Shown piece after piece: positions 9,358 through 46,921 of a DNA stretch of 64,000 nt. The notes under the pieces are model-generated. The model saw only the letters and a list, made by a program, of their open reading frames with translations. It was not told the DNA's origin and made no database searches. The DNA comes from a bacterium (GTDB taxonomy: Bacteria; Eisenbacteria; RBG-16-71-46). Positions within the stretch are counted from its first letter, which is position 1, and every line of letters begins with the position of its first letter. The stretch is taken from assembly GCA_046076045.1 (NCBI GenBank), contig JBJTRI010000033.1, forward strand, positions 745 through 64,744, read 5' to 3'. The translations under genes and the position numbers were made by a program.

Positions 9358-10638
9358 ATGCACGATCCCAAGTTCCTGCGCCAGAACCGCGACAAGGTCG
9401 AGGCCGGTATCGCCCTGAAGGGCGCCAAGCTGGACCTCACGCGCTTCTACCAGATCGAGGAGCGCCGTCTCGCGCTGCTGCACGAGACCGAGCAGCTCAA
9501 GGCCAAGCGGAACGCCGCCAGCGACGAGATCGCGCGCCTCAAGAAGTCGGGGCAGGATGCCGGCGCGCTCATCCTGGACCAGCGCGCCATGGGCGACCGC
9601 GTGAAGGAGCTCGACCAGGAGCTCGGTCAGCTCGAGGAGGAGGCCACCCAGCTCGCGGCGTGGATCCCCAACCTGCCGCACCCCTCGGTGCCGCCGGGTT
9701 CGGACCCCAGCTCGAACCAGGTCGTGCGCACGTGGGGCACGGTGCGCGACTTCGACTTCGAGCCCAAGGCGCACTGGGACCTCGCGACCGACCTCGGACT
9801 GCTCGACTTCGAGCGCGCCACCAAGATCTCGGGCTCGGGCTTCCTGCTCTTCACCGGGCTCGGCGCCAAGCTCGAGCGCGCGCTCATCAACTTCATGCTC
9901 GACTTCCACGTCGAGCGCCACGGCTACACCGAGGTCTCGCCGCCGCACGTCATCCGGCGCGCCGCGCTCTTCGGCACGGGGCAGCTGCCCAAGCTCGAGG
10001 GCGACATGTACCACATCGGCGAGGAGGACCTGTTCCTCAACCCGACCGCCGAGGTGCCCGTCACCAACATCCATCGCGACGAGATCCTCGAGCCCGGCGT
10101 GGTGCCGCGCTACCTCACCGCGTACTGCGCGTCGTACCGGCGCGAGGCCGGTGCGGCGGGGCGTGACACGCGCGGCATGGTGCGCGTGCACCAGTTCGAC
10201 AAGGTCGAGCTCGTCAAGATCGTCGCGCCCGAGACCAGCTACGACGAGCACGAGAAGCTGGCGCGCGACGTCGCCGACATCTTCGAGGCGCTGGAGCTGC
10301 CGTACCGCGTGCTGCTGCTGTGCAGCGGCGACATGAGCTTCGCCGCCTCCAAGTGCTACGACTTCGAGGTCTGGTCGCCGGGCCAGCAGGCATGGCTCGA
10401 GTGCAGCTCGTGCTCGAACTTCGAGGACTTCCAGTCGCGCCGCATGGGCATGCGGTTCCGGCGCGAGGTGGGTTCCAAGGTCGAGTACCCGCACACGCTC
10501 AACGCCTCGGGCGTGGCCCTGCCGCGCACGTTCGCGACGATCCTCGAGAACCACCAGCAGGCCGACGGCTCGGTGGTGATCCCGAAGGCGCTCCGCCCGT
10601 ACCTGGGCGGGCTCGAGGTGTTGCGGCCGCGCGCGTGA
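9358..10638 (+). CDS. serS: Seryl-tRNA synthetase
   Basis: N-terminal coiled-coil arm, class II motifs (FLLFTGLGAKLERALINFMLD, YRREAGAAGRDTRGMVRVHQFDKVE, TLNASGVALPRTF). Confidence 0.9.
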   Translation: MHDPKFLRQNRDKVEAGIALKGAKLDLTRFYQIEERRLALLHETEQLKAKRNAASDEIARLKKSGQDAGALILDQRAMGDRVKELDQELGQLEEEATQLAAWIPNLPHPSVPPGSDPSSNQVVRTWGTVRDFDFEPKAHWDLATDLGLLDFERATKISGSGFLLFTGLGAKLERALINFMLDFHVERHGYTEVSPPHVIRRAALFGTGQLPKLEGDMYHIGEEDLFLNPTAEVPVTNIHRDEILEPGVVPRYLTAYCASYRREAGAAGRDTRGMVRVHQFDKVELVKIVAPETSYDEHEKLARDVADIFEALELPYRVLLLCSGDMSFAASKCYDFEVWSPGQQAWLECSSCSNFEDFQSRRMGMRFRREVGSKVEYPHTLNASGVALPRTFATILENHQQADGSVVIPKALRPYLGGLEVLRPRA

Positions 10639-12053: not shown

Positions 12054-13736
12054 TCAGGGGCGCGCACCGAAGCGCGTGCCGAAGAAGTCGCCCGCGTTCC
12101 AGTGCGGCGCCCGGGTCGCGTCGGCCGCCAGCCACGTGGCCCAGAACGCCATCGAGGTGAAGCGCGCACCGCTCGGCCAGTCGAACGGCTGCGACAGGTC
12201 GTCGTTCGGTCCGTGGTAGTGGTCCACGCGCCAGCCCGCCACCTCGTCGCGCCCCTCGGGGCTGCCGTCGTGCCCCGACACCGGGAACACCGCGGGGATG
12301 CCCTGACGCACGAACGAGAACTGGTCGCTGCGCACGAACACCACCTCGGCGGGCGTCGGGTCGGGGATGAGCTCGAGTCCCGCGAGCGCGGCCGCGCGCG
12401 CCATCACGCCGGCGAACGAGCTGTGCTCGGCCCCGATCGCGACCACCTTCCGCAGCGGACGCAGCAGCAGCACCATGTCGAGGTTGACGTTGCCCACCAC
12501 GGCCATGCTGTCGGGCGCGGCGTGCTGCGCGAAGTAGTCGGAGCCCTGCAGGCCCTTCTCCTCGCCGGTCACCGCGAGGAACACCACCGAGCGGCGCGGG
12601 CGCGCCCCCGGCGCGGTGAACGCGCGCGCGGCCTCGAGCATCATGGCCACGCCGCTCGCGTTGTCGTAGGCGCCGTTGTGGATGGAGTCGCCGTGCACGG
12701 GTTCGCCGATCCCGAGGTGGTCGAGGTGGGCCGAGACCACGATGCACTCGTCGCGCAGGCGCGGGTCCGAGCCGCGCAGCACGCCGACCACGTTGGGACT
12801 CGAGGCCCGCTCCTGCTCGGTCACGCGCACCGCCTTCACCGTCCACGTGAGCGGGAAGCCCTGCGCGCGGCTCGAGTCGGCGTCGGCGGCCGCGGCGAGT
12901 AAGTCCAGCGCAGCGCCGTCGAACAACCGTTCGGCGGCGGTGCGTCCGACCTGGCCCGAGATCTCGAGCCCGGCGTGCGTCTGCGCGGGCGCCCCGCCGT
13001 CGTCGAGCCAGCGGAAGCCCGGCAGGCGGTTCTGACGCATGTTGCGCGCCCACGGCTGGCGCGCCTCGTCCGAGGGCTTGATCAGGGTGAGCACGCCGAT
13101 CGCGCCCCGCGCCACCGCCATCTGGTCCTTCATCTGCCCGTTCGAGTAGTACGCGCGCTCGTCGTTGGGGAAGCGCGGGGGCGCGCCGCGGAACTGCACC
13201 ACCACCTTGCCGCGCACGTCCACGCCGCCGTAGTCGTCGTAGCCCAGTTCGGGCGCGCTCACGCCGTAGCCCACGAACACGAGCGGCGCCTCGGTGGTCC
13301 ACTTCGTGCGCAGGAAGTCGGGGGACAGCAGCACGTCGCGTCCGACCTCGAGCGGCAGCGCCTCGTCGCCGCGGCGCAGCTCGAACGCGCACGCCTCGGG
13401 CCGCAGCCGCGCGCGCAGCATCGGCACGGGCTGCAGGTAGCCGCCGTCGCCGCCGGGCTCGAGCCCGAGTTCCTGCATCCACTCCGCGACGTAGTGCGCG
13501 GCACGGTCGTAGCCGGGCGTGCCTGTGCCGCGGCCCTCCATGGCGTCGTCGGCGAGCGCGCGCACGTGCGCCTCGAGCCGGGCCGGGTCCACCGCGCGGC
13601 CGGCGGCGAGCACGGCCGCGGGCGGGTGGTCGCTGGCCGCGGATGCGGCGGGGCGGCGGGGCGCTGCCAGCGCGGGGACGACGAGCGTGACGAGCAGGGC
13701 GAGCGCGACGAGTCGGCGATGCGGCATCGGGGGCAT
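12054..13736 (-). CDS. Secreted M28-family metallo-aminopeptidase with PA domain
   Basis: ATG at 13736 chosen as the first Met before a signal peptide (MPPMPHRRLVALALLVTLVVPALAA). HxD and GEEKGLQGS zinc-ligand motifs (AHLDHLG, VTGEEKG). Confidence 0.75.
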   Translation of the reverse strand: MPPMPHRRLVALALLVTLVVPALAAPRRPAASAASDHPPAAVLAAGRAVDPARLEAHVRALADDAMEGRGTGTPGYDRAAHYVAEWMQELGLEPGGDGGYLQPVPMLRARLRPEACAFELRRGDEALPLEVGRDVLLSPDFLRTKWTTEAPLVFVGYGVSAPELGYDDYGGVDVRGKVVVQFRGAPPRFPNDERAYYSNGQMKDQMAVARGAIGVLTLIKPSDEARQPWARNMRQNRLPGFRWLDDGGAPAQTHAGLEISGQVGRTAAERLFDGAALDLLAAAADADSSRAQGFPLTWTVKAVRVTEQERASSPNVVGVLRGSDPRLRDECIVVSAHLDHLGIGEPVHGDSIHNGAYDNASGVAMMLEAARAFTAPGARPRRSVVFLAVTGEEKGLQGSDYFAQHAAPDSMAVVGNVNLDMVLLLRPLRKVVAIGAEHSSFAGVMARAAALAGLELIPDPTPAEVVFVRSDQFSFVRQGIPAVFPVSGHDGSPEGRDEVAGWRVDHYHGPNDDLSQPFDWPSGARFTSMAFWATWLAADATRAPHWNAGDFFGTRFGARP

Positions 13737-13910
13737 GGCGACCTCGGGTGCGGGACGGCGTGGGAGGGGCGAGGCTAGGGGCGCGGGCACGCGAGCGTCA
13801 ACGGTCCGGCATTGTCGAGTGCGTCTCGCGAGCGGTATCGTGCGCGTGTTCGCGCCTCTTCCCCCGGCCTCGTCCCGCGTGGGACGCCGTCCCTTCCCCT
13901 GGAGGTCCTC

Positions 13911-14495
13911 GTGATCCGTCGTCTGCTCGCCCTCGGGCTCCTGCTCTCGGTCCTCGCCGTGCCCGCCGCGCGCGCCCAGAACACCGCATGGGTCGGCATC
14001 GCGGGTGGGGCCAGCATCCCCATGGGCGACTTCGCCGACGTGGCGAAGAACGCGTTCGACCTCGGGCTCACCTACGCCTACCCGCTGGGCGAGACGATCC
14101 TCGTGGGAGTGGACCTCTACAACCACCAGTGGCAGGGCGACGGTGTGGTCGCGCGCCCCGACGGCGTGGCCGGTCAGGTCGGCGTGGACTCCTACCGCGT
14201 CTCGCAGGTCAGCGGTCTCGTGTACTGGGTCCCGGTCTCGGGGCAGACGATCACGCCGTACCTGCGCGTGGGTCCGGGCTACTACCAGTTCCGCACCACC
14301 TACGAGACGCAGTTCGCGCCGGACACGCGCGACCACTTCGGCGTGCTCGGCGGCGGTGGCCTCATGCTCGCGATCACCGACGACTTCGGGCTCACCACCG
14401 ACGTGGTCTGGCACCACGTGGTGCGCAACACCGAGTCGGTGCGCCTGAACGCGGTCAGCGCCACCGCCGGCCTCGTGTTCCGCTTCGGGCTCTAG
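13911..14495 (+). CDS. Outer-membrane beta-barrel protein (OmpA-like/OMP_b-brl family)
   Basis: GTG at 13911 with a GGAGG SD. Signal peptide (LLALGLLLSVLAVPAARAQ), alternating amphipathic strands and a C-terminal aromatic residue (LVFRFGL). Confidence 0.65.
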   Translation: MIRRLLALGLLLSVLAVPAARAQNTAWVGIAGGASIPMGDFADVAKNAFDLGLTYAYPLGETILVGVDLYNHQWQGDGVVARPDGVAGQVGVDSYRVSQVSGLVYWVPVSGQTITPYLRVGPGYYQFRTTYETQFAPDTRDHFGVLGGGGLMLAITDDFGLTTDVVWHHVVRNTESVRLNAVSATAGLVFRFGL

Positions 14496-14648
14496 CCGCG
14501 GCGGGCCACGGCCCACACGCACGGGGGCGGTCCCGGTCCGGGGCCGCCCCCGCGCCGTTCCCGGCCCGCTTGGGGTGGCGCGGGCGCCCGGCTACCATGC
14601 GGGCGACGCCGCTCCCCACCTCCTCCGCGCCCTCGCGCACCCGGGACC

Positions 14649-16241
14649 ATGGCCAACGAGACCACCCGCCGCATCCTCTGGGCCGACGACGAGATCGACC
14701 TCCTCAAGCCGCACATCCGCTTCCTCGAGCAGAAGGGCTACGCGGTCACGCCCGTGCCGAGCGGAAGCGATGCGCTGGCCGCGCTCGAGCGGGAGCGCTA
14801 CGACGTGCTGCTCATCGACGAGATGATGCCGGGCATGGGCGGGCTCGAGACGCTCGACGCACTCAAGCAGCGCGACGTCGCGATGCCGGTCATCCTCATC
14901 ACCAAGAGCGAGGAGGAGACGCTCATGGAGGAGGCGATCGGCAAGCGCATCACGGACTACCTGATCAAGCCCGTGAACCCGTCGCAGGTGTTCCTCGCGT
15001 GCAAGCGCGTGTTCGACGCCCAGAAGCTGCAGGACTCGCAGCGCGCGCGCGACTACGTGGGCGAGATGCGGCGCTGGCAGAGTCTCGACCTGCGCTCGCT
15101 CGACTGGCGCGGCTGGGTGGACCTGGCGGTGGACGTGGCGCGCTGGGACGTGGGGCTGGACGGGGCGCCCGAGGCCGGGTTGCAGCAGGCGCACGGCGAC
15201 TTCCGGCGCGGGCTCAACGCCGACTTCTCGCGCTTCATCGAGGCGCAGTACCCGCGGTGGGTGCGCGCCGCCGCGCAGGGTTCGACCGACGACCGCCCGC
15301 TGCTCTCGACCGACCTCGTGCGTCACGCCGTGGTGCCGCACCTCGCCGCCGGCAAGCGCGTCAACCTGATCGTCATCGACTGCATGCGGCTTGACCAGTG
15401 GTTCACGCTCGAGCCGCTGCTCGAGGACTGGTTCGACATCCAGCGCGAGTACTACTGCTCGATCCTGCCCACCGCCACGCCGTACTCGCGCAACGCCATC
15501 TTCTCGGGCCTGCTGCCGGCGCAGATGTGGAAGAAGCACCCCGACCTGTGGCAGGAGAGCACCGGCGACGAGCGCACGCGCAACCGGTTCGAGCGCAACT
15601 TCCTCGAGCTCCAGTTGGCGCGGCTCAACGCCACCCCGGCCAAGGGGCTCAAGTACCTCAAGATCTACGACGTGGACGAGGCCCACGCGACGCGCCGACA
15701 GATCAACTCGTTCACCGGCCTGTCGCTGGTCGCGATGGTGTTCAACTTCATCGACATCCTCGCGCACGGCCGCAGCGAGAACGAGATCCTGCAGGAGCTG
15801 GCGCCTGACGAGGCCGCCTTCCGAGCGGTCATGAAGGCGTGGTTCACGCACTCGCCGCTCTACGAGATCCTGCAGGCGCTGTCGGCGCAGGACTGCGTCA
15901 CGGTGGTGACGACCGATCACGGTGCGGTGCTCGGCAAGCGCGCCGCCATGGTGCACGGCAACCGCGACACCTCGAGCAACCTGCGCTACAAGTACGGGCT
16001 CAACCTGAACACCGACCCGAAACAGGCCATCATCGTGCGCAAGCCGGCCGACTACCTGCTCCCCGACGACGGCATCAACAAGAACTACGTGCTCGCGCGC
16101 GAGGACTACTTCTTCGTGTACCCCACGAACTTCCACGAGTACGAGCGGCAGTTCCGCGGCTCGTTCCAGCACGGTGGGGTGTCGCTCGAGGAGATGGTGC
16201 TGCCGTTCGTCACCCTGCGGCCGAGGTCGCCGCGCGCGTGA
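14649..16241 (+). CDS. PorX-like response regulator: CheY-like receiver fused to a PglZ (alkaline-phosphatase superfamily) domain
   Basis: Receiver motifs (ILWADDE.., DVLLIDEMMPGMGG, ILITK) plus ~400 aa with a PglZ-like metal-binding core (IVIDCMRLDQW, TDHG). Length (530 aa) and architecture match PorX. Confidence 0.7.
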   Translation: MANETTRRILWADDEIDLLKPHIRFLEQKGYAVTPVPSGSDALAALERERYDVLLIDEMMPGMGGLETLDALKQRDVAMPVILITKSEEETLMEEAIGKRITDYLIKPVNPSQVFLACKRVFDAQKLQDSQRARDYVGEMRRWQSLDLRSLDWRGWVDLAVDVARWDVGLDGAPEAGLQQAHGDFRRGLNADFSRFIEAQYPRWVRAAAQGSTDDRPLLSTDLVRHAVVPHLAAGKRVNLIVIDCMRLDQWFTLEPLLEDWFDIQREYYCSILPTATPYSRNAIFSGLLPAQMWKKHPDLWQESTGDERTRNRFERNFLELQLARLNATPAKGLKYLKIYDVDEAHATRRQINSFTGLSLVAMVFNFIDILAHGRSENEILQELAPDEAAFRAVMKAWFTHSPLYEILQALSAQDCVTVVTTDHGAVLGKRAAMVHGNRDTSSNLRYKYGLNLNTDPKQAIIVRKPADYLLPDDGINKNYVLAREDYFFVYPTNFHEYERQFRGSFQHGGVSLEEMVLPFVTLRPRSPRA

Positions 16242-16714
16242 TGCCCGGGGACCGCAAGCGCACCGGCTCGGTCGAGGCGACCGAGCGACTGGGCGAGGCC
16301 TTCGGACGCGCGCTGCGCGCGGGGGACGTGGTCACGCTCTCGGGCCCGCTCGGTGCGGGCAAGACGCGGCTCGTGGCCGGACTCGCGCGCGCCGTGGCGC
16401 CGGGCTCGCGCGTGCGCAGCCCCTCGTTCACACTCGTCCACGAGGTGCCCGGCGAGCCGTGGCTGTTCCACCTCGACCTGTACCGGCTCGAGTCGGTGCG
16501 CGAGGTGGAGGGCCTGGGGCTCGAGGAGTACGCCGAGCGCGGGGCGTTGGTGGTGGAGTGGGGCGAGCGCCTGCCGGCCGCGTGGCGCGACGACGCGCTC
16601 GCGATCGCCATCGAGCCCGGTGCGGGTGACGAGCGCGTCCTGACCGCGACGGCCTCGGGGGTGCGCGGGGCCGAACTGCTCGCAGCCTGGCGCGCGCTGC
16701 CGGAGGCGTGGTGA
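16241..16714 (+). CDS. tsaE: tRNA threonylcarbamoyladenosine biosynthesis protein TsaE
   Basis: Walker A LSGPLGAGKTRLVAGLA and the SPSFTLVHEV motif. The ATG shares the A of the upstream TGA (alternative GTG at 16238). Confidence 0.8.
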   Translation: MPGDRKRTGSVEATERLGEAFGRALRAGDVVTLSGPLGAGKTRLVAGLARAVAPGSRVRSPSFTLVHEVPGEPWLFHLDLYRLESVREVEGLGLEEYAERGALVVEWGERLPAAWRDDALAIAIEPGAGDERVLTATASGVRGAELLAAWRALPEAW

Positions 16715-17895
16715 GCGCACGACCCGCGTTGGGGCTCGCGCTCGAGACCGCCACCGAGCGCGTCGGCGTGGCGGTGGTGGAGGCCTCCGGCGCCGTGCGG
16801 GCGACCCTCCACGAGGACGTGGGCCACGGGCACACGCGGCGGCTCACGCCCATAGTGGGCCACGTGCTGGCCGAGGCCGGCGTGACGGTGCGTGACCTCG
16901 CGTGGGTGGCGGCCGACGTCGGGCCGGGGTCGTTCACCGGCGTGCGCGTGGGACTGGCGACCGCGAGTGCGCTCGCCATGGTGGCGGGGGCGCGCCGACT
17001 CGGCGCTTCGAGCTTGAGTGCGCTCGCGCATGCGGCGGGCGGCCATCGGCAGTTGCTCGTGACGCTGGTCGGTGCGGGGCGGCGCGACCTGTACGCGGGC
17101 TTCCACCGCGTGGACGCGCGCGGGCGCGTGCACCTGATCGCCGCACCGCGCGTGGACACGCCCGCGGTCCTGCTCGGCGCGGTCGCCGAGTTGCACGCCG
17201 TGCTGCCCGACCACGCGGTGCGGTTCGTGGGGCCGGGCGCGGGGCGCGAGCGCGCCGTGTTCGAGGAGGCGTACCCCGGCAGCACCGCGGACGGCTTCCG
17301 GCACGACGGGTTGTCGGCGCTCGACCTCGCTGCGGTCGCGGTGCTCGACGCCGGTCCCGGTGCGGGCCTGCCCGCTCCCGGGCGCGAGTGCGAGCCGGTC
17401 TACGTGCGACCCGCGCAAGCCGAGGAGAAGGTGCGGCACCGCATCATGGGGCTCACCCCGCCGCTCGTGCGCGCCCTGCAACCGGCCGACCTGCCCGTGG
17501 TGGACGAACTCGAGCACCGGTTGTTCGGCGACCCGTGGCCGCAGCACTTCTTCCTCGACGCGCTCGCCGCTCCCGAGGCCGTCTGCCGCGTGGCCGAGCG
17601 CGGGGGCGAGGTGGCGGGCTACCTCGTGGCCACCGTGCTCGCACCCACCGCCGAGTTGCAGAACGTCGCCACCGCGCCCGAGCATCAGCGCGGCGGCGTC
17701 GCGCGCGCCCTGCTCGACGACCTCGTCGCGACCTGTCGCGCACGCGGCGTGCGCTCGATCGGGCTCGAGGTGCGGGCCTCGAACGCCGCCGCCCAGACCC
17801 TGTATCGTTCCTACGGCTTCCGCGTGAACGGTCTGCGGCGCGGCTACTACGAGTCGCCCGCGGAGGACGCCCTGCTCATGGAGTTCCCATGCTGA
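16708..17895 (+). CDS. tsaB: TsaB (YeaZ)::RimI fusion: N-terminal TsaB domain, C-terminal GNAT ribosomal-protein-alanine acetyltransferase domain
   Basis: GTG overlaps the tsaE stop. The N-terminal half matches TsaB (ALETATERVGVAVV.., GPGSFTGVRVGLA). The C-terminal half has GNAT motifs (VATAPEHQRGGVARALL, LEVRASNAAAQTLYRSYGF). Confidence 0.75.
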   Translation: MVSARPALGLALETATERVGVAVVEASGAVRATLHEDVGHGHTRRLTPIVGHVLAEAGVTVRDLAWVAADVGPGSFTGVRVGLATASALAMVAGARRLGASSLSALAHAAGGHRQLLVTLVGAGRRDLYAGFHRVDARGRVHLIAAPRVDTPAVLLGAVAELHAVLPDHAVRFVGPGAGRERAVFEEAYPGSTADGFRHDGLSALDLAAVAVLDAGPGAGLPAPGRECEPVYVRPAQAEEKVRHRIMGLTPPLVRALQPADLPVVDELEHRLFGDPWPQHFFLDALAAPEAVCRVAERGGEVAGYLVATVLAPTAELQNVATAPEHQRGGVARALLDDLVATCRARGVRSIGLEVRASNAAAQTLYRSYGFRVNGLRRGYYESPAEDALLMEFPC

Positions 17896-19730
17896 CGATC
17901 CGGTCGCGCGTACTCGCGCTCGTGTTGACGATCATGCCCATGCTGGGTGCGAGCCCGCTCGCGGCACAGCCCGTGCCCGACAGCACCCGAGCACGCATTC
18001 CCGCTTCTGCGCCCGCCGCGCTCGCACCTGCGCCCGCGCGCGGCGCGACCGTGCCCGCCCCTTCGCCCGCCACGCTCGCACCTGCACCTGCGCGCGACGC
18101 GCTAGCACCCATGCCCGAGGCGCTCGCACCTGCGCCTGCGTCCAACCTGCTCGTGTCCGACGACGACGGTCCGGTCGCGCGCCCGGAGCGGCCCATCCCG
18201 GTCTTCCTCGGTGGGCGCGAGTTGTTGTCGCTGCACGTCGGTCGGGACGGCATGGGGGTGCGCGACCGTGCGGAGGCCATCCGCGATCGTCTGGTGGTGG
18301 CGGTGGCCGACACCACGCTCGCCGCCTCCGACGTGCAGCTCGTGCCGCGCGCCAACGCGGTCGAGTTCCGGCTCGGGCGCCGACTGCTGTTCGTGCTCGT
18401 GCCCGAGGACCTGCCGCCGCTCGACCGCACCGAGACCGAGGCGTGGCTGCTGCGCCTCGCGCGCGAGGTGAGCGAGGGCATCGTGCGCGAGCGGGCCAGC
18501 CGGGAGCCGAGCGCCCGCCTCACGAGCATCGCGATCGGTGCGGCGTGGACGCTGGGCGCGTGGCTCCTCGCGCTCGCGGTGCTCGCGCTCGGGCGGCGTT
18601 GGCGCTGGTGGTTGCACACCGTGGTGTCGCCGCGCCTGCCCGCCATCCGCGTGCGCAGCACTGAGGTGCTGTCGCGTCGCCAACTCGGGTCCCTGCTGCT
18701 CGGCGTGCTCGGCCGAGCCGACCTGCCGGTGCTGCTCGTGCTGGCCTATACCTGGCTGACGACCGTGTTCGCCCGCTTCCCCGTCACCCAGTCGTGGAGT
18801 TGGGAGTTGCGGCGGTTCGCGGTCGAGCGCTCGTCGGAGCTCGTGCGGGTCGTGCTCGCCTCGCTGCCGGGACTGCTCACGGTCGTGTTCATCCTGTGGG
18901 TGTTCCGCGCCTTCATGCGGCTCTCGGACCGGTTCTTCGACCGCGTCGCGCGCGGCGCCACGACGCTGCCGGGCTTCCATCCCGAGCTCGCGGCCCCCAG
19001 CCGCCGACTCGCCCGCATCGTTCTGGGGCTGGCGGCGATCATCACCGCGTATCCCTACCTGCCGGGCGCGGAGTCCAAGGCCGTGCAGGGCATCTCGGTG
19101 CTCGTCGGCCTCATGGTGTCGCTGGGCTCGTCGGGCATCGTGGGCAACATGATCGCGGGCCTCGTGCTCACCTACTCGCGCAGCTTCAGCATCGGGGACC
19201 GCGTGCGCATCGGGGACCACGTCGGCGACGTCCTCTCGCTCGGCACGTTCGCGACCAAGCTGCGGAGCCTGCGCAACGAGGAGGTCACGCTGCCGAACGG
19301 CGCGATCCTCGCGGGCACCATCCTCAACTACACGCGGCGCACGGCGCAGGAGGGCGGGCTGTGGCTGCACACGCAGGTCACGATCGGCTACGACGCGCCG
19401 TGGCGGCAGGTGCACGCGCTCCTCATCGAGGCCGCGTGCTCGGTGCCCGGCGTCGAGTCGAGCCCCGAGCCCATCGTGTACCAGCGCGCGCTCAACGACT
19501 ATCACGTGAGCTACGAGATCACGTGCCTCACGCACGACTCGCACGCGCAACTCCGGCTCTACAGCGACCTGCATGCCGCCATCCAGGACGCGTTCGCGCG
19601 CGCCGGCGTCGAGATCCTGTCGCCGGCCTACGCCGCGCTGCGCGACGCGAACGCGCAGGTGCTGCCGTCCGAGCCCGCGGGGCCGCGTGAGATGCCCGGC
19701 GGCTTCCGGGTCCGGCGCCCCGGGGAGTGA
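17889..19730 (+). CDS. Mechanosensitive ion channel (MscS family) with a large N-terminal periplasmic/TM extension
   Basis: ATG at 17889 overlaps the tsaB::rimI stop by 7 nt. Signal peptide and several TM segments. MscS pore/beta domain: VLVGLMVSLGSSGIVGNMIAGLVLTYSRSFSIGDRVRIGDHVGDV. Confidence 0.75.
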   Translation: MLTIRSRVLALVLTIMPMLGASPLAAQPVPDSTRARIPASAPAALAPAPARGATVPAPSPATLAPAPARDALAPMPEALAPAPASNLLVSDDDGPVARPERPIPVFLGGRELLSLHVGRDGMGVRDRAEAIRDRLVVAVADTTLAASDVQLVPRANAVEFRLGRRLLFVLVPEDLPPLDRTETEAWLLRLAREVSEGIVRERASREPSARLTSIAIGAAWTLGAWLLALAVLALGRRWRWWLHTVVSPRLPAIRVRSTEVLSRRQLGSLLLGVLGRADLPVLLVLAYTWLTTVFARFPVTQSWSWELRRFAVERSSELVRVVLASLPGLLTVVFILWVFRAFMRLSDRFFDRVARGATTLPGFHPELAAPSRRLARIVLGLAAIITAYPYLPGAESKAVQGISVLVGLMVSLGSSGIVGNMIAGLVLTYSRSFSIGDRVRIGDHVGDVLSLGTFATKLRSLRNEEVTLPNGAILAGTILNYTRRTAQEGGLWLHTQVTIGYDAPWRQVHALLIEAACSVPGVESSPEPIVYQRALNDYHVSYEITCLTHDSHAQLRLYSDLHAAIQDAFARAGVEILSPAYAALRDANAQVLPSEPAGPREMPGGFRVRRPGE

Positions 19731-19895
19731 GCTGCGGGCGTTCCCCCGTGGGCGTGCGCGAGCGCGGTTCCGGGGTGGCGGTGGACCCCCCGCGGTATTA
19801 GACTGCGCCGCCGTGGACCCGTCGCAAGGCGGGAGTCCGCGCCCACGCGTCGGCCGCGGTCGTCGCGTGCCTCACCCGGAGAACGCCCCGCCGCC

Positions 19896-20819
19896 ATGTC
19901 CTGGCTCAATCGCGAACGCACCGGCATCAAGCCGGGTCCCAAGCCCGAGCGGACCGAGGTCCCCGACGGCCTGTGGACCAAGTGCGACGGCTGCGGCGAG
20001 GCGCTGTTCCAGTCCGTGCTCGAGGAGCACCTCTGGACCTGTCGCCACTGCGACCACCACTTCCGGGTCCCGGCGCGCACCTACGTGGACTACCTCGTGG
20101 ACGAGGGCTCGTTCCAGGAGCGCCACACCGGTCTGGTGGCGGGCGACCCGCTCGAGTTCCGCGACGCCAAGCTGCCCTATCCCGAGCGCCTCGCCGCCGC
20201 CCAGCGCGACACGGGCGAGAAGGATGCCGCCATCTGCGGCACCGCGTCGATCGGGGGCGTGCCGGCCAGCGTCGCGCTCATGAACTTCTTCTTCATGGGC
20301 GGCAGCATGGGTTCGGTCGTGGGCGAGAAGGTCGCGCGCACCATCGAGGCCGCGCTCGACGAGCGCCGGGCCTGCATCGTGGTGTCCGCCACCGGCGGTG
20401 CGCGCATGCAGGAGGGCATCCTCTCGCTCATGCAGATGGCCAAGACCAGCGTGCTGCTCGCGCAGCTGCGCGCGGCGCGCCTGCCGTTCGTGTCGGTGCT
20501 CACCGACCCCAGCACGGCCGGCGTGCTCGCCTCGTACGCCTCGCTCGGCGACCTCATCGTGGCCGAGCCGCGCGCGCTCGTGGGTTTCGCGGGCGCCCGC
20601 GTCATCCGGCAGACGATCGGCGAGGACCTGCCGCCCGGCTTCCAGCGCGCCGAGTTCGTGCTCGAGAAGGGGTTCGTGGACCGCATCATCCATCGCAAGC
20701 GCATGCGCGAGGAACTCGGCGCCACGTTGTCGTTGCTCTGGCACTCCACCCGCGGATTCGCTCCCGAGGGCGGCAAGTCGCCGCATCGCTACGACCCGAG
20801 CGCCCTCCGTCCGGCCTGA
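19896..20819 (+). CDS. accD: Acetyl-CoA carboxylase carboxyltransferase subunit beta
   Basis: Zinc ribbon CDGCGEALF..CRHCDHH and carboxyltransferase motifs (FMGGSMGSVVGEK). Confidence 0.9.
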   Translation: MSWLNRERTGIKPGPKPERTEVPDGLWTKCDGCGEALFQSVLEEHLWTCRHCDHHFRVPARTYVDYLVDEGSFQERHTGLVAGDPLEFRDAKLPYPERLAAAQRDTGEKDAAICGTASIGGVPASVALMNFFFMGGSMGSVVGEKVARTIEAALDERRACIVVSATGGARMQEGILSLMQMAKTSVLLAQLRAARLPFVSVLTDPSTAGVLASYASLGDLIVAEPRALVGFAGARVIRQTIGEDLPPGFQRAEFVLEKGFVDRIIHRKRMREELGATLSLLWHSTRGFAPEGGKSPHRYDPSALRPA

Positions 20820-20838
20820 GCGGGAACGCGACCCTCTC

Positions 20839-22140
20839 GTGACGCCGGCACTCCAGCGCCGACTCGAGGCCCTGTGGGGGCTCGAGCGCCGTCACCCCAA
20901 GCTGGGCCTCGACGGCACGCGCGCGCTGCTCGCCGGCCTCGGCCACCCCGAGACGCGCTTCCGCTCCGTGCACGTGGCCGGCACCAACGGCAAGGGCAGC
21001 GTGTGCGCACTGGTCGAGCGCGTGCTGCGCGCCGCCGGGCATCGCACCGGGCTCTACACCTCGCCGCACCTGCTCGACTTCCGCGAGCGCATCCGGGTGG
21101 ACGGCGAGTGGGCCTCCGAGGACGAGTTGCTCGCGCGGCTCGCGGCGATCGAGGCGCTGCCCGACGCCGCGGGCGCCACCTTCTTCGAGGTCGCCACCGC
21201 GCTCGCGTTCGACCGCTTCGCGCGCTCGGGCGTCGAGTGGGCGGTCGTCGAGGTGGGGCTCGGCGGGCGGCTCGACTCCACCAACGTGCTCGCGCCCGCG
21301 GTCTGCGCCATCACCTCGATCGGGCTCGACCACGCCGAGATCCTGGGCGACACGCACACCGCGATCGCGGCCGAGAAGGCCGGCATCCTCAAGCCCGGCG
21401 TGCCCGCGGTGAGCGCGGTCGAGCACGACGCGGCGGCTGCGGTCGTCGCGCACCGCGCGGCCGAGGTCGGTGCCCCGCTCGTGATCGCGCGCAACGCGGT
21501 CGAGGCGACCGTGGTGGCGACGGGCGAGTGGGGGACGCGGCTCGCGGTCGAGTGCGAGCCGTGGGGCCGCTTCCAGCTGCAGATGCGGCTGCTGGGCTCG
21601 CACCAGCGCGACAATGCGCGCACCGCGCTCGCCGTGCTGTCGCGGCTCGCCGCGCAAGATGTGGCGCTGCCGCTCGACGCGGTGCGCACGGGTTTCGCCG
21701 AGGCGCGCTGGCCGGGACGGCTCGAGCCGTGCCCCGCGCGGCCACGGCTGTGGTGGGACGGCGCGCACAACCTCGACGGCATGCGTCGGCTCGCGCAGGC
21801 GTGGACCGACGACCTCGCGCTGCCATCGCCCGCGGCGGTGGTGTTCGCCGCCGGGCGCGACAAGGACGCGGCCGCGCTGCTGCGCCGCCTGCACGCGTTC
21901 GCGCCGCACGCCACGTTGGTCGTGACGCGCACGCACAACGACCGCGCGCGACCCGCCGACGAGTTGGTGACGCTCGCGCACGGCGCGGGCTTCGAGGCGG
22001 TCGCTGCCGACACGGTGGCCGCCGCCATCGAGGCCGCGTTCGCGCGCCACGCCGAGGGCCGCGTGCTGGTGTGCGGTTCGCTGTTCGCGGTCGGCGAGGC
22101 CATGGCCGCGTACGGGGGAGGGCCGGGCGCATGCGTCTGA
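20839..22140 (+). CDS. folC: Folylpolyglutamate synthase / dihydrofolate synthase
   Basis: GTG at 20839. P-loop HVAGTNGKGSV and Mur-ligase motifs. accD-folC order is conserved. Confidence 0.85.
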   Translation: MTPALQRRLEALWGLERRHPKLGLDGTRALLAGLGHPETRFRSVHVAGTNGKGSVCALVERVLRAAGHRTGLYTSPHLLDFRERIRVDGEWASEDELLARLAAIEALPDAAGATFFEVATALAFDRFARSGVEWAVVEVGLGGRLDSTNVLAPAVCAITSIGLDHAEILGDTHTAIAAEKAGILKPGVPAVSAVEHDAAAAVVAHRAAEVGAPLVIARNAVEATVVATGEWGTRLAVECEPWGRFQLQMRLLGSHQRDNARTALAVLSRLAAQDVALPLDAVRTGFAEARWPGRLEPCPARPRLWWDGAHNLDGMRRLAQAWTDDLALPSPAAVVFAAGRDKDAAALLRRLHAFAPHATLVVTRTHNDRARPADELVTLAHGAGFEAVAADTVAAAIEAAFARHAEGRVLVCGSLFAVGEAMAAYGGGPGACV

Positions 22141-25100
22141 GCACGCTCCCACTGCTCGCGTTGCTGGTCGCCGTCGCCGCGCGGGGCGAGGTGCTCATCG
22201 TGCCCTCGCCAGCGCCCGACTCGGCGACGGTCGCATCCGACAGCACCGCGGCCGAGAGCACGCGCGTGGTCGTGCCGACCCCGGCGCCCGCGGTCGTGCC
22301 CGCGCCACGCGCCGCCGCACCGCGACCCGCGGTCGCGCCCGCCCCCGAGCCGCCGTACCGCATCGAGGCCGATCGCATGACCGGCGGCCGCGGGCCCACG
22401 GGTGACGTGCTGTACCTCGAGCAGGTCACCATCACGCGCGGGCGCACGCGCCTGCAGTCCGAGCGCGGGCGCTACGAGCGCGCCACCGGCATGGTGCACG
22501 TCGAGGGACGCGTGCGCATGCGCGACTCGAGCACCACCGTGACCTGCGACGAGGCATCGTTCTCGGAGACTCAGGACCGCCTCGACCTGCGCGGTAACGT
22601 GGTGGTGGTGGACCGCGAGGCACGCCTGCAGGCGCCCTTCGGGTGGTACGACCGGCGCAGCGGCAAGGCCCGCCTGCACGGCGGGGTGCGCGGACAGGAG
22701 CGCAAGCAGCGGTTGGTGGCGCGCGAGGCGTACTACGACCGCGACTCCTCCATGGTCATCGCGGTCGGCGACGTGATCGGCGACGACGACGAGAACCGCA
22801 CGCGCATCGAGGCGCAGCGCGTCGAGTACGACCGGCGCAGCAAGGTCGCGACCGCGACCGGCAGCCCGCTGTTGCGTGCCCGCGACGACGACGGGCACGA
22901 GACGCGGCTGCGCGCCCGCCTGCTGCGCGTCGGCTCCGAGAGCAAGGTCGCCGAGGCGCTGGACTCGGTCGAGGTCGAGCGCGACACGCTGCGCGCGCGC
23001 GCCGACTACGCACGCTTCGACGATGCGCTCGGACGCGGGCTCCTGCTGGGTTCGCCGCGGGCGTGGGACGGCGAGACCACGATCTCCGGCGACACGCTCG
23101 AGACCGTGGGGCGCGACCGCAAGCTCGACCGCATCCTCGTGCGCGGGCGCGCGGGCATCGACTACGCCGGCGCACGCGAGGGCACGCGCGGCGACCGCAG
23201 CCGGCTCACGGGCGAGCAGGTCGAGATGTACGTCACGGGCTCGCGCATCGACAGCCTCGTGGCGACCGGGCAGGCGCGCAACACCTACACGGCCGCGGCC
23301 AAGCCCGGCAAGACCGCCGAGGACAACCGCGCCGAGGGCGACACCATCCTGGTGTTCTTCAAGGACAAGCGCATCGACCGCGCCCGCGTCGTGGGCGGCG
23401 CGACCGGCGCCTACCGACCGCCGGTCGCGGTCGACGACACCACGGCGGCCCGCCTCGAGCGCATCACCTACGAGGCCGCCGGCATCGTGTTCGAGATCCC
23501 GCGCAACCGCATCGTGCTCGACGGTCAGGCCAAGCTGCTGTACCGCGACCTCGAGCTGAGCGCGCGCCGCGTCGAGTTCGACAGTCGCCGCAACACGCTG
23601 GTGGCCGAGGGGCAGCCGTCGCTGGTCGAGAAGGGCGACGAGGTCGAGGGTCAGCTCATGACCTACGACATGGAGCGGCAGGTCGGCACCATCTACCAGG
23701 CCACCACGCAGTACGAGCGCGGGCTCTACCACGGCAAGCGCATCCGCAAGGTGAGCGAGCGCGAGCTCGACGTGCTCGGCGGCTCGTACAGCACCTGCGA
23801 CCTCGCCGAGCCGCACTACCACTTCTCGGCGCGTTGGATGAAGATCTACCTCAAGGACAAGCTGGTCGCGAAGCCGGTCGTGTTCTACCTGCGCAACGTC
23901 CCCGTGCTCGCGCTGCCGTTCTACGTGTTCCCGATCAAGCCCGGGCGGCACTCCGGATTCCTGTTCCCGCAGTTCGAGTTCGGGTTCAACAGCGCGAGCG
24001 GGCAGTTCATCCGCAACGCCGGCTACTACTGGGCCCCCAACGACTACTTCGACTTCACCGGCGCCGGCGACTACTACGCGGCCGATCCGTCGTGGCTGCT
24101 GCGGGGCGAGCTCAACTACAAGCTGCTCTACCGCTTCGAGGGCCGCGCCGACGTGAAGTTCGGGCACGACGAGCGCACCGGGCGCGACGACTACACGTTC
24201 TCGGGCACCCACCAGCAGACGCTCGGTCAGCGTACGCGCCTGTCGGCGCTCGGCAACTTCACCTCGAGTCGCGACTTCAGCACGAGCGGCCAGTCGGGGC
24301 AGTCGTTCCAGCAGCGCTTCGACCGGTTCCTCAACTCGAACCTGCAGCTCACGCACTACGCCGACGGGTTGTCGCTGAGCGCGATCCTCGACCGGCGCCA
24401 GGACCTCGACGCCGACGACGACCTCATCGGCCCGACCGGCAACCTGCTGCCCGTGGGCACGGTCGGCCGCCCCAGCCTGACCGTGTACGAGCCCTCGCTC
24501 GCGGTCTCGCTGCCGCAGCGCACGTTGGGTTCGTACGGCCTCATCAAGGACAACGCGGTCGGGCGCGCGCTCAAGAACACCTACCTGAGCCTCAACGCGC
24601 GCTACCTCGGCTACCGCACCGAGCGGGCGTTCGTCGAGGGCGTGTACGACACGGCCGGGGTGCTCGCCGGCTCGCGCATCGGTCGGCAGCGCGAGACGCG
24701 GCGCGCGGCGACCTCGCAGTTCTCGCTCTCGGACTCGCGCCGCTTGCTGGGCTGGATCAACTTCTCGCCGTCGGTGTTCGGCAACGCGGTGGTATTCGAT
24801 CGCGACGAGCAGGGCAACACCGTCGTGCCGGCCGCGGTCTGGCAGTCGGGCGTCGGCGTCTCGACCACGCTGTACCGCACGCTGTCCACGCCCATCGAGG
24901 GGCTCGCGTTGCGGCACGTCGTGAGTCCGAGCGTGCAGATCTCGTACTCGCCCGACTTCCCCGGGCTGTCGTACACCGACGAGAACGGCATCCTGCGCCC
25001 GCGCTTCAAGGGCTTCGCCGACGTCAACCTGACCTCGGGCGCGCGCTCCACGGTGGGCTCGTTCACGCTGGACCAGCGCCTGCAGGCCAAGCTCACGCGC

Positions 25101-25751
25101 GGCGAGCGCGTCACGCGCCTCGACAACCTGCTGTCGTGGACGACGAGCGGTTCGTACGACTTCCGCTGGCGCGAGAACGGGCGCTCGCACGGGCTCTCGG
25201 CGCTGTCCTCGGCGCTCCGCCTGCAGCCGCCGGGCTGGGTCAACGCCGACGGCAACGCGATCGTGGACCCGTACCAGGGCCGTCCGCTCCGTTCGCTCGG
25301 CTGGAACGTCTACACCTCGTTCGGCAACCGCGGCGGCGGCCGCCCGCAGGCCGCGCGCTCGGCCACCGATAGCGAGCGCGGCGTGAGCGAGGGCGAGGAG
25401 GCCGAGAATGCGTTCCGCGACAACTGGACGGTGTCGCTGGCGTACTCGTCGTCGGGTGGCTACTTCGGTCCGTCGTGGAGTTCGCGCGAGGCGCTCAACG
25501 CGGTGTTCCGCTATCAGATCACCGAGGGCTGGCTGTTCGACTACTCCGCCGGTTACGACCTCACCGATCGCCGCGTGCAGTTGCAGCGCTTCAACCTCAC
25601 GCGCCGCATCCACTGCTGGGACGCGACCTTCACCCGGTCGTTCACGCCCGGGGGCGAGACCGAGTACTACCTGCGATTGGGCATCCGCGAGCAGCGCGAG
25701 ATCTACCTCGAGCGCGGGACGCGCGTGCAGAGCTTCGGTGGCATCCAGTAG
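22131..25751 (+). CDS. lptD: LPS-assembly protein LptD (OstA N-domain + large C-terminal beta-barrel)
   Basis: ATG at 22131 overlaps the folC end by 10 nt. Signal peptide MRLSTLPLLALLVAVAARG. OstA-like jellyroll repeats (YLEQVTITRGRTRLQSERGRY.., LRGNVVVVD) and a long beta-rich C-terminus ending in an aromatic-rich barrel. Confidence 0.75.
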   Translation: MRLSTLPLLALLVAVAARGEVLIVPSPAPDSATVASDSTAAESTRVVVPTPAPAVVPAPRAAAPRPAVAPAPEPPYRIEADRMTGGRGPTGDVLYLEQVTITRGRTRLQSERGRYERATGMVHVEGRVRMRDSSTTVTCDEASFSETQDRLDLRGNVVVVDREARLQAPFGWYDRRSGKARLHGGVRGQERKQRLVAREAYYDRDSSMVIAVGDVIGDDDENRTRIEAQRVEYDRRSKVATATGSPLLRARDDDGHETRLRARLLRVGSESKVAEALDSVEVERDTLRARADYARFDDALGRGLLLGSPRAWDGETTISGDTLETVGRDRKLDRILVRGRAGIDYAGAREGTRGDRSRLTGEQVEMYVTGSRIDSLVATGQARNTYTAAAKPGKTAEDNRAEGDTILVFFKDKRIDRARVVGGATGAYRPPVAVDDTTAARLERITYEAAGIVFEIPRNRIVLDGQAKLLYRDLELSARRVEFDSRRNTLVAEGQPSLVEKGDEVEGQLMTYDMERQVGTIYQATTQYERGLYHGKRIRKVSERELDVLGGSYSTCDLAEPHYHFSARWMKIYLKDKLVAKPVVFYLRNVPVLALPFYVFPIKPGRHSGFLFPQFEFGFNSASGQFIRNAGYYWAPNDYFDFTGAGDYYAADPSWLLRGELNYKLLYRFEGRADVKFGHDERTGRDDYTFSGTHQQTLGQRTRLSALGNFTSSRDFSTSGQSGQSFQQRFDRFLNSNLQLTHYADGLSLSAILDRRQDLDADDDLIGPTGNLLPVGTVGRPSLTVYEPSLAVSLPQRTLGSYGLIKDNAVGRALKNTYLSLNARYLGYRTERAFVEGVYDTAGVLAGSRIGRQRETRRAATSQFSLSDSRRLLGWINFSPSVFGNAVVFDRDEQGNTVVPAAVWQSGVGVSTTLYRTLSTPIEGLALRHVVSPSVQISYSPDFPGLSYTDENGILRPRFKGFADVNLTSGARSTVGSFTLDQRLQAKLTRGERVTRLDNLLSWTTSGSYDFRWRENGRSHGLSALSSALRLQPPGWVNADGNAIVDPYQGRPLRSLGWNVYTSFGNRGGGRPQAARSATDSERGVSEGEEAENAFRDNWTVSLAYSSSGGYFGPSWSSREALNAVFRYQITEGWLFDYSAGYDLTDRRVQLQRFNLTRRIHCWDATFTRSFTPGGETEYYLRLGIREQREIYLERGTRVQSFGGIQ

Positions 25752-27616: not shown

Positions 27617-28951
27617 ATGTCCCGAATCCTTCCCATGACGCCGTGGTCGTTCGTGGTCGCCGCTGCGCTCGCGGTCGGCGCCACGTGCGCCTCGGCCGCC
27701 ACGGCGCCCACGCTCGACCTCGAGCGCGCGCTCGCCGAGGTCGCAGCGCAGGACCCGCTGCTGCAGGCCCAGCGCCACGAGGTCACGGCCGCGCGTGCCC
27801 GTGCGGTGCGCGCCGGTGCGGGCGAGGCCCCCATGCTGGAGTTCATGCTCGAGAACGTGCCTGTAGGCGGCGGCTTCGACATGGACGAGATGACCATGCG
27901 CACGGTGGGCGTGCAGCAGCGCCTCGGGGTGAACGGTGCGCGCGGCTACGCGCGCCGTGCCGCGCAGCACGAGGCGCGCGCCCGCGAGGCGCGCGTGGAC
28001 GACACGCGTTGGCAGCGGCTCGCCGCCGCGTGGGAGGCGTACGCCGACGCGTACCACTCGGCCGAGCGCGCCGCCGCGGCCCGCGAGCATCGTGCGATCA
28101 TGCAGCGCATGGCGGGCGCGGCCCGGGCGCGCTACGAGTCGGGGCGCGGCCGGTTCGAGGACCTGCTGCGGGTCGAGGCCGAGCGCGCGCGCATCGAGGC
28201 CGATGCGGTGACGTTCGAGTCCGAGGAACTCGCCGCGCGGGCGCGACTCGCGCAGTTGCGCGGGCTCGGGGGGGACGGCGCGAGCGAGGTGCTCGCCGCC
28301 CCGAATGGAGCGCTCGCGCCCGACAGTGCGGCCGGTTGGGCGGGTGCGGTGGCGGGTCATCCGCGCGTCGCGATGGCCGGTCACCTCGAGCGTTCGCGGC
28401 GCGACGCCGCGAGTTCGATGCGCCGCATGGCGTGGCCCGACCTCACGCTGCGCGCCTCCTACGGCTACCGCGGCACGCTCCACGAGGGACTGCACGACCT
28501 CGACGACATGTGGAGTGCGGGCGTGGCGGTGATGCTGCCGGTCGGCTTCGGCTCGCGCGAGGGCGCCGAGGCGCGCGAGATGGACGCCATGGCCGACGCC
28601 GCGCTCGCCGAGCGCCGCGCCGAGGCCCTGGCGCTCGAGCGCGAGATGCGCGCGCTCCGGCTCGAGGCGCGCGCCGCGGCGCGCACCGCGACCCTGCTCG
28701 CCGACACCGTGGCGGTCGCCGACCGCAAGGCGCTGGCCGCCGCGTGGAGCGCGTACGAGACGGGTGCCACCGACCTCGCCGGCGTGTTCGAGGCGGCGCA
28801 TGCGTTGTACACCGAGGAGATCGACGTGACGCGCGCGCGGCAGGCCCACGCGCGCGCATTGGCCCGGCTGCTCGCGATCACCGCGGACGGCTCGTTGGTG
28901 GGGGTGCGCGTGCCGGTCGCGGACGCGCCGAGCGGGAGGGATGCGCGATGA
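27617..28951 (+). CDS. Outer-membrane efflux protein (TolC family; CusC/CzcC-like)
   Basis: Signal peptide, two repeated coiled-coil/beta halves typical of OEP-family proteins. Positioned first in an RND tripartite operon. Confidence 0.7.
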   Translation: MSRILPMTPWSFVVAAALAVGATCASAATAPTLDLERALAEVAAQDPLLQAQRHEVTAARARAVRAGAGEAPMLEFMLENVPVGGGFDMDEMTMRTVGVQQRLGVNGARGYARRAAQHEARAREARVDDTRWQRLAAAWEAYADAYHSAERAAAAREHRAIMQRMAGAARARYESGRGRFEDLLRVEAERARIEADAVTFESEELAARARLAQLRGLGGDGASEVLAAPNGALAPDSAAGWAGAVAGHPRVAMAGHLERSRRDAASSMRRMAWPDLTLRASYGYRGTLHEGLHDLDDMWSAGVAVMLPVGFGSREGAEAREMDAMADAALAERRAEALALEREMRALRLEARAAARTATLLADTVAVADRKALAAAWSAYETGATDLAGVFEAAHALYTEEIDVTRARQAHARALARLLAITADGSLVGVRVPVADAPSGRDAR

Positions 28952-30312: not shown

Positions 30313-30319
30313 GGCCCCG

Positions 30320-33811: not shown

Positions 33812-33814
33812 GGC

Positions 33815-36145: not shown

Positions 36146-36222
36146 ACCGCTTCCCGATGTCGTAATGTCCCATCACCCGACCGTCGCACCCGCGGCGGTC
36201 CCCACCCGAGAGGAGATCCCCG

Positions 36223-46304: not shown

Positions 46305-46463
46305 CGATCCGCCGAACGGGCTGCGGTGACCGGACCAGCGGCGTCGGGGTCGCCCGCCACGGAGGAGGGACGAGCGGTCAGCGGTCCCTAACCGTCTATG
46401 TCAAGGTTTTGTCAGGGTTTGATTCCCGGCCCTTGCTGCGGCCCTTGCCGGGGGCCGGTCGGG

Positions 46464-46492
46464 TTGACAAGGTCCGGGGTGGAACATAGCCT
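46464..46492 (+). promoter_or_regulatory. Putative sigma70-like promoter in the low-GC intergenic region
   Basis: Consensus -35 TTGACA, 17-nt spacer, then TAGCCT (T1, A2, T6 conserved). Upstream are tandem TGTCA(A/G)GGTTT half-sites at 46398-46419. A ~200-nt leader would precede the ATG at 46712. Confidence 0.35.
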
Positions 46493-46894: not shown

Positions 46895-46921
46895 GGTCGA
46901 CGTTGGCACGTGTGTCACCCG

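Follow-up and report, generated by a model that had tools for sequence, protein, structure and literature searches.

Why should the gene for PorX, a type IX secretion system (T9SS) response regulator, run straight into genes for threonylcarbamoyladenosine (t6A) synthesis? The question is raised by a 64-kb window of an Eisenbacterial contig (JBJTRI010000033.1), the whole stretch of DNA analysed here, which has an overall GC content of about 73%. Within it, four genes on the forward strand are chained by overlapping stop and start codons: porX, tsaE, a tsaB::rimI fusion and a gene for an MscS-family channel. All four belong to well-known families. The sequence-only reading from which this analysis started had considered a porX gene at the head of an operon with t6A genes to be unusual. 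We find instead that the direct order porX-tsaE is the normal and ancient arrangement across the phyla related to Bacteroidota (FCB phyla). The locus in the window is probably the Eisenbacterial copy of an ancient, FCB-wide porX-tsaE pair that forms a conserved functional module; its structural and evolutionary description is given with high confidence.

Genomes, one per GTDB species, were scanned with an alignment of the window PorX, the PorX of Porphyromonas gingivalis and four Eisenbacterial homologues. The 80 best-scoring of at least 591 confirmed relatives were compared, with up to 7 kb of flanking sequence on each side. Neighbouring genes were detected by hidden Markov models (HMMs) built from the window proteins and run against the six-frame open reading frames (ORFs) of all loci, and start codons in the relatives are estimates rather than annotations. 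The compared PorX loci, designated by L-numbers (e.g. L006, L086), include in this set of 80 the labels Eisenbacteria, Gemmatimonadetes, Latescibacterota, LCP-89, SM23_31, Calditrichota, Chloroherpetonaceae, Rhodothermales, Balneolaceae and several Bacteroidota orders; the labels are those of the records of metagenome-assembled genomes (MAGs), and mis-binning is probable for some of them, such as the contigs that carry the names Limnocylindria, Chromatiales or Thalassomonas. Enough downstream sequence to judge adjacency is present in 78 of the loci. In 59 of these, from at least eight phylum-level lineages, tsaE lies on the same strand within 350 nt downstream of porX, with many of the junctions having an estimated gap of −4 to +30 nt, and in five further loci it lies 0.8–5 kb downstream. 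Unsupervised clustering of the ORFs within 5 kb recovered PorX from all 80 loci and TsaE from 67, with the next most frequent family at 20 (a cluster antisense to porX, in 65 loci, was set aside as spurious). Adjacency and clustering together therefore make porX leading into tsaE the rule and not an oddity.

A separate feature was seen in 17 Bacteroidota-type loci (labelled Pedobacter, Flavobacteriales, Crocinitomicaceae, Marinoscillum, Flammeovirgaceae, Penaeicola, Bacteroidota or Thalassomonas; e.g. L063, L067, L074 and L081), where a different conserved block surrounds porX-tsaE. An alanine-dehydrogenase-like gene lies downstream of the pair (TIGR00518, 308 bits against a cutoff of 392) and a conserved gene of about 450 aa lies divergently upstream, the trimmed 404-aa sequence of which has no NCBIfam match.

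The pair had already been published for P. gingivalis, of which 81 strains have ubK1, the single TsaE-family gene, downstream of porX, and in which UbK1 phosphorylates the PorX receiver on Tyr79 in vitro, dependent on the catalytic residues of UbK1 (Saran et al, J Biol Chem 2026, PMC13241743). The same paper states that Tyr79 is not broadly conserved, and its survey of ubK1 placement was limited to P. gingivalis. In the literature searched it is the only work to connect PorX with TsaE/UbK/YjeE. The window locus is like that of P. gingivalis in that a PorX orthologue is followed directly, on the same strand, by a single TsaE/UbK-family gene, and in the PorX architecture with its catalytic and phospho-acceptor residues. 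It is unlike it in that the genes overlap, in belonging to the phylum Eisenbacteria with a GC content of 73%, in having Ala in place of the UbK1 target tyrosine and in a link to T9SS that is putative.

It could be that the adjacency is pure operon hitchhiking, in which a small essential tsaE depends on the porX promoter and stays there by descent and convenience of expression, with no interplay at the protein level outside P. gingivalis. Several results weigh against a functional module, and most of them favour this explanation. The position aligned to Tyr79 is Ala in the window PorX and Tyr in just one of 81 sequences, and mutation of Tyr79 in P. gingivalis leaves gingipain secretion unaffected (PMC13241743). 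Among the 80 loci there are no fusion ORFs of PorX with TsaE, and likewise none of TsaE with TsaB. In 14 of the 78 informative loci porX is kept and tsaE was not found in the vicinity, so the pairing is dispensable; nine of these loci bear the labels Dyadobacter, Arcicella, Leadbetterella, Lacihabitans, Emticicia or Persicitalea, four are from Rhodothermales and one is from a Bacteroidota MAG. Co-transcription in the window also gained nothing from scans of positions 13700–20100, where no sigma-70 promoter was matched, in a scan that is uninformative at 73% GC, and where the one intrinsic-terminator-like match is at chance level. In other phyla tsaE also sits in mixed operons with unrelated genes, for example beside amiB in E. 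coli, as hitchhiking would have it. On the other side, the pair persists across the eight or more phylum-level lineages with all its other neighbours changed, tsaE stays beside porX even where its biochemical partners tsaB and rimI have moved away, and there is the phosphorylation of PorX by UbK1 in vitro with its dependence on catalytic residues (PMC13241743). We regard hitchhiking as a rather unlikely explanation of the whole pattern and favour a conserved porX-tsaE module. Because the pair is widespread while Tyr79 is almost never kept, the gene pairing is far older and far more conserved than the mapped phosphosite, and this argues for a relationship between PorX and TsaE that is old and unexplained by Tyr79.

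The protein had been called PorX-like from its receiver and PglZ architecture, and the label can now be made firmer, as it is a full-length orthologue of PorX. It scores 624.1 bits against the NCBIfam equivalog for the T9SS response regulator PorX (NF052313, cutoff 300), covering profile positions 2–513 of 513. Profile searches also bear out the two domains, with 83.8 bits for the receiver (PF00072, Response_reg) and 68.9 bits for the C-terminal domain (PF08665, PglZ). The structure of P. gingivalis PorX (7PV7) gives an end-to-end match over residues 8–526 (E 3e-126), and over the same residues the chains of 8TED and 8P6F, labelled only response regulator receiver proteins, match at E ~1e-125. 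The closest named homologues, at 72–99% identity, are mostly labelled Candidatus Eisenbacteria, which NCBI files as the phylum Candidatus Eiseniibacteriota. An exact-sequence look-up met the window PorX on two short Logan contigs only, and the window channel protein on none.

The roles of the key residues of PorX, namely the phospho-acceptor, the switch, the catalytic threonine and the zinc ligands, have been described (PMC9757075), and they were followed through an alignment of 82 sequences, with counts made over the 81 compared, the window included. Asp57, the phospho-acceptor, together with Thr85, Tyr104 and Lys107 of the window protein, aligns with Asp58, Thr86, Tyr105 and Lys108 of P. gingivalis. 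The receiver Asp, Thr and Lys are invariant (81/81), and the aromatic switch position is Tyr in 79 sequences and Phe in two. In the PglZ domain the presumed catalytic Thr277 and the presumed zinc ligands Asp244, Asp369, His373, Asp423 and His424 align with Thr272, Asp239, Asp361, His365, Asp415 and His416 respectively, and His508 is likewise conserved. Taken together, each phospho-acceptor, switch and catalytic position keeps its residue in 80–81 of the 81 sequences, with Tyr and Phe both counted at the aromatic position. As judged by this alignment, the receiver and the phosphodiesterase active site of the window PorX are both intact.

All domain assignments of the four genes lie above the curated Pfam and NCBIfam thresholds, and the identities proposed at the outset for TsaE, TsaB::RimI and the channel hold. 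TsaE scores 111 bits against PF02367 and 87.4 against TIGR00150 (cutoff 60.1). Its motifs GPLGAGKT (Walker A), SPSF, HLDLYR and VVEWG align with T. maritima TsaE (6N9A) and B. subtilis YdiB, and correspond to the four motifs (Walker A, SPT/S, HxDxYR and EW) of P. gingivalis UbK1; the ATPase/kinase motif set is, by this comparison, intact.

The next ORF encodes TsaB and RimI in a single polypeptide. Residues 10–234 match TsaB (TIGR03725, 125.7 bits against a cutoff of 69.3) and residues 263–391 match RimI (TIGR01575, 111.4 against 86.4), the latter half carrying a readable acetyl-CoA motif, QRGGVA. Judged by sequence, both domains are intact. The order tsaE, tsaB, rimI is the long-known, classical tsaE-tsaB-rimI(-tsaD) order and is shared with B. 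subtilis ydiB-ydiC-ydiD-ydiE. It is also shared with M. tuberculosis, where the order is tsaE-tsaB-rimI-tsaD with rimI being Rv3420c (PMC4926160, PMC5335608), and this context of rimI is conserved in about 20% of bacterial genomes (PMC4926160). The window differs from these operons in that no tsaD follows (accD does so in relatives), tsaB and rimI are fused and porX lies upstream. Among the compared loci tsaE leads on to tsaB and rimI only in Eisenbacteria, Calditrichota, LCP-89, SM23_31 and a small number of unlabelled MAGs; the two genes were not found there in the Bacteroidota, Balneolaceae, Latescibacterota and Gemmatimonadetes loci examined. The lineages without them at the locus have kept tsaE beside porX, with tsaB and rimI moved away.

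At least nine relatives, assembled independently of one another, carry a fused ORF of 394–399 aa (L006–L009, at 72–74% PorX identity, and L083–L086 and L088, at 86–89%). The two genes are separate and adjacent in L011–L013, L016, L018, L028, L031 and L061, and in deeper Eisenbacteria and other phyla tsaB and rimI are two genes that overlap or lie close together. An artefact of assembly or of a frameshift might be suspected here, as a single indel between such neighbours could mimic a fusion, but the recurrence of the same ORF in independent assemblies effectively refutes this, and we give the artefact next to no credence. The fusion is confined, among the loci compared, to the Eisenbacterial subclade of the window, with two genes in deeper Eisenbacteria, and is therefore both recent and real. 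It is not special. When 1.84 billion representatives of 50%-identity clusters were searched for fusion homologues and the best 150 inspected, about 115 were of fusion length (at least 340 aa), most of them matching both the TsaB and the RimI halves, end to end or in two stretches, and several carry dual YeaZ/RimI names (e.g. WP_109714255.1), which again speaks against an artefact. The architecture, an N-terminal TsaB/YeaZ and a C-terminal RimI GNAT domain in one polypeptide, is common, and fusion of rimI to tsaB has been reported for Bordetella and Mycobacterium leprae (PMC4926160). Because deeper Eisenbacteria still have two genes, it would seem likely that the fusion of the window subclade arose independently of these. 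The fusion noted from the sequence is thus confirmed as a single ORF and is limited to one subclade among the loci, but it recurs widely elsewhere.

The fourth gene encodes a channel with a signal peptide, an Ala/Pro-rich linker, an N-terminal periplasmic domain, about five predicted transmembrane helices and an MscS core, a topology that was read from the sequence. The core scores 66.5 bits against PF00924 (MS_channel_2nd; cutoff 20.2) and 43.2 against PF21082 (MS_channel_3rd; cutoff 21), and aligns with residues 88–270 of E. coli MscS. As in E. coli YnaI, MscK and MscM, the C-terminal core of pore helix, beta domain and C-terminal domain is preceded by an extra N-terminal part. Unlike in those channels, the first 380 or so residues matched nothing when searched against Pfam, NCBIfam and the PDB. 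Codon usage gives an ambiguous signal across the Ala/Pro-rich stretch of the first 85 or so codons, and the codon-usage gene caller chose a later start, GTG 18153. This was rejected in favour of ATG 17889 because the latter gives a signal-peptide-like N-terminus, fits an N-out topology and has a counterpart in the orthologue of L086, where a GTG start overlaps the tsaB::rimI stop (GTGA) and is followed by a clear signal peptide.

It had been suggested that the channel forms part of the unit. A novel integrated four-gene unit, wiring the T9SS regulator to t6A synthesis and a mechanosensitive channel, would agree with the three consecutive overlapping junctions and with the overlap of the channel gene and tsaB::rimI in L086. 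No MscS homologue was detected by HMM search in any of the 80 genome loci, though, and among the related loci examined L086 is the only one with an orthologue in the same position, at 62% identity as against 89% for PorX, so that the channel diverges much faster than the regulator. The interval between tsaB::rimI and accD is variable (17889–19895 in the window; 11267–13007 in L083, 11467–15914 in L084, 6734–7885 in L086 and 11397–13290 in L087). Relatives at 86–88% PorX identity hold here either an opposite-strand msrP/msrQ-like pair (L083, L087) or that pair together with an 892-aa beta-helix protein (L084, L085), and in the more distant L006–L009 the slot is empty, accD following directly. 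As the contents of the slot vary among close relatives, the channel gene is a lineage-specific insertion that would use operon expression, not a conserved partner. With the porX-tsaE and tsaE-tsaB-rimI links both old and known, an integrated four-gene unit is very improbable. The reasons that the sequence-only reading gave for interest in the locus, an unusual operon, a fusion and a channel, therefore fall away, since both gene links had been described before, TsaB-RimI fusions are common and the channel is incidental.

Direct reading confirms that the four genes are chained. The stop codon of porX (TGA, 16239–16241) overlaps the tsaE start ATG 16241 by 1 nt (TGATG), or by 4 nt (GTGA) if the in-frame GTG at 16238 is used, as the junction GTGATG allows. 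The tsaE stop (TGA, 16712–16714) lies within GTGGTGA and overlaps the tsaB::rimI start by 7 nt (GTG 16708) or 4 nt (GTG 16711). The tsaB::rimI stop (TGA, 17893–17895) lies within ATGCTGA, giving a 7-nt overlap with the channel gene. Such overlaps fit an operon, yet about 10 of the roughly 40 same-strand junctions in the window are of this kind (counted with a custom codon-usage gene caller), and they are therefore unremarkable in themselves at 73% GC. Upstream, a perfect GC-rich hairpin lies after the gene for a small outer-membrane protein (OMP). It may act like a terminator, though a T tract is missing; between it and porX about 95 nt remain for a promoter and 5′ untranslated region. No structure was seen in an RNA fold downstream of the channel gene, and Rfam and tRNA scans of the whole window found nothing. 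The features are collected in Table 1.

Table 1. Coordinates of the features of the porX locus and its conserved surroundings, in window positions.
Feature	Position	Strand	Evidence or profile	Remark
serS	9358..10638	+	Pfam Seryl_tRNA_N + tRNA-synt_2b	Upstream end of Eisenbacterial conserved block
Sensor histidine kinase, 448 aa	10635..11981	+	HATPase_c	Start codon uncertain
M28 peptidase	12054..13736	-	Pfam Peptidase_M28	Between kinase and porX
Small outer-membrane beta-barrel protein	13911..14495	+	Pfam OMP_b-brl	Between kinase and porX
GC hairpin, perfect 14-bp	14522..14552	+	Fold of 14496-14640, z = -2.48, 14 consecutive pairs	After OMP gene
porX, 530 aa	14649..16241	+	NF052313, PDB 7PV7	Receiver, helical linker, PglZ/alkaline-phosphatase-superfamily domain
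tsaE	16238..16714	+	PF02367, TIGR00150	UbK/YjeE family P-loop ATPase; start GTG 16238 or ATG 16241
tsaB::rimI fusion, 395 aa	16708..17895	+	TIGR03725, TIGR01575	Start GTG 16708 or GTG 16711
MscS-family channel, 613 aa	17889..19730	+	PF00924 + PF21082, residues 417-576	Start ATG 17889
accD, folC, LptD_2-type outer-membrane protein	19896..25751	+	Pfam	Downstream end of conserved block

The order serS, histidine kinase, porX, tsaE, tsaB, rimI, accD, folC, lptD is kept across Eisenbacteria. Synteny of serS was found in L005, L007–L013, L083, L084 and L087, and accD, folC and the LptD_2-type gene come directly after rimI in L006–L009 and L011–L013. A second variable slot separates the kinase gene from porX. 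L008 and L011–L013 have nothing in it, other loci have an M28 peptidase gene, in some cases with DUF4097, and the window has the M28 peptidase and the OMP. The peptidase is present in L005, L009, L010 and L083–L088 and is an insertion relative to the deeper lineages. The small OMP gave no tblastn match in the 32 loci tested, and none was called in the annotated loci of relatives.

The kinase of this block, whose gene starts 60 nt or so after serS in the relatives, lies 2.7 kb upstream of porX in the window. From its sequence it has two predicted transmembrane helices around a periplasmic loop of about 135 residues, an H-box and a HATPase_c domain, which is a PorY-like architecture. A PorY-specific model was not among the 25 best of its 61 NCBIfam matches, these being generic histidine-kinase matches far below their cutoffs. 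In 13 loci (L008, L011–L017, L019–L022 and L051) of Eisenbacteria, Gemmatimonadetes and Latescibacterota, a full-length homologue is encoded on the strand of porX and ends 6–190 nt upstream of it. Because it stands directly beside porX in these related loci, the kinase is likely the cognate kinase of PorX, perhaps the ancestral one. In P. gingivalis, by contrast, PorY is an orphan encoded apart from PorX.

As for secretion itself, no T9SS component and no cargo domain of the C-terminal sorting kind was found in the proteins scanned in the 64-kb window, and no paper in our literature searches mentions Eisenbacteria together with T9SS. The 892-aa beta-helix protein of L084 has a weakly FlgD_ig-like C-terminus and no match to a T9SS sorting domain at E <= 0.01. 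Two OMP genes were noted after porX-tsaE in Gemmatimonadetes and Latescibacterota loci (L014, L015, L017, L019–L022 and L051; e.g. L017 8906–10432 and L051 8916–9884). A 437-aa OMP in this position was considered as PorV and rejected, with sub-threshold N-terminal matches to BamG (57.7 bits of 250) and PorV/PorQ (53.4 of 90).

The window as a whole is rich in housekeeping genes. Its 5′ part carries, in order, tgt, yajC, def, fmt, rsmB, rpe, ffh, rpsP, a carbonic anhydrase gene and a gene for a TPR protein, followed by the block of Table 1, a copper-type efflux island and assorted metabolic genes. The codon-usage caller left two stretches without a gene, 635 nt at 2713–3347, which may be an N-terminal extension of rsmB (the ORF 2679–4694 being open), and 849 nt at 46305–47153. 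The copper/silver-type resistance island (27635–36558) encodes an outer-membrane efflux protein, an adaptor that resembles CusB and has a heavy-metal-binding domain, an RND pump of the AcrB/CusA type, a P-type ATPase carrying an HMA domain and a cupredoxin. A pair of paralogous multihaem cytochromes of the c554 type (40937–42178 and 44940–46304, 43% identity) flanks a PALP enzyme with a CBS domain (42366–43757) and a Cys/Met-metabolism pyridoxal-phosphate enzyme (43754–44923). A pair of hydantoinase/caprolactamase-like A and B subunits lies at 49134–52714, with matches far under the equivalog cutoffs.

How might the conserved porX-tsaE module work? By homology, the membrane kinase would phosphorylate Asp57 of PorX, which would then dimerise, switching on its zinc-dependent phosphodiesterase domain and its regulatory output; dimerisation with phosphodiesterase and regulatory activity has been described for P. 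gingivalis PorX (PMC9757075). TsaE would be made in step with PorX through the overlapping stop and start codons and, again by homology, would serve t6A synthesis with TsaB(-RimI) and TsaD by cycling the TsaB-TsaD complex. The linkage and the single P. gingivalis experiment suggest that PorX is probably also a target or a partner of TsaE, as it is of UbK1 in P. gingivalis, though not through Tyr79. In the window the porX-tsaE pair is still joined to the classical partners of tsaE, tsaB and rimI, which are fused in this subclade, and the unit sits in a housekeeping block of serS, sensor kinase, porX, tsaE, tsaB, rimI, accD, folC and lptD with two variable slots; the MscS gene would be a passenger that uses transcription of the operon.

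What the comparison adds is breadth, in that a pairing reported in 2026 in one species holds across at least eight phylum-level lineages, which is not true of the mapped phosphosite. Sequences of PorX and TsaE that are paired by nature are now at hand for co-variation analysis or complex prediction, and a candidate cognate kinase lies beside porX in Eisenbacteria, Gemmatimonadetes and Latescibacterota. Neither the breadth of the linkage nor the adjacent kinase is noted in the literature searched, and both sharpen the open question raised in 2026. We tentatively propose, as a possibility that we would not yet favour, that the FCB superphylum as a whole inherited porX-tsaE as a functional module, one that predates the radiation of the sampled FCB phyla and is not specific to P. 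gingivalis virulence, with a conserved interface between TsaE and PorX other than Tyr79; Eisenbacteria would have kept a layout near the original (sensor kinase, porX, tsaE, tsaB, rimI) and control of T9SS would have been recruited later. If this were true, a two-component oligonucleotide-phosphodiesterase regulator would be tied to the t6A machinery, and the original job of PorX would have been in translation or nucleotide signalling.

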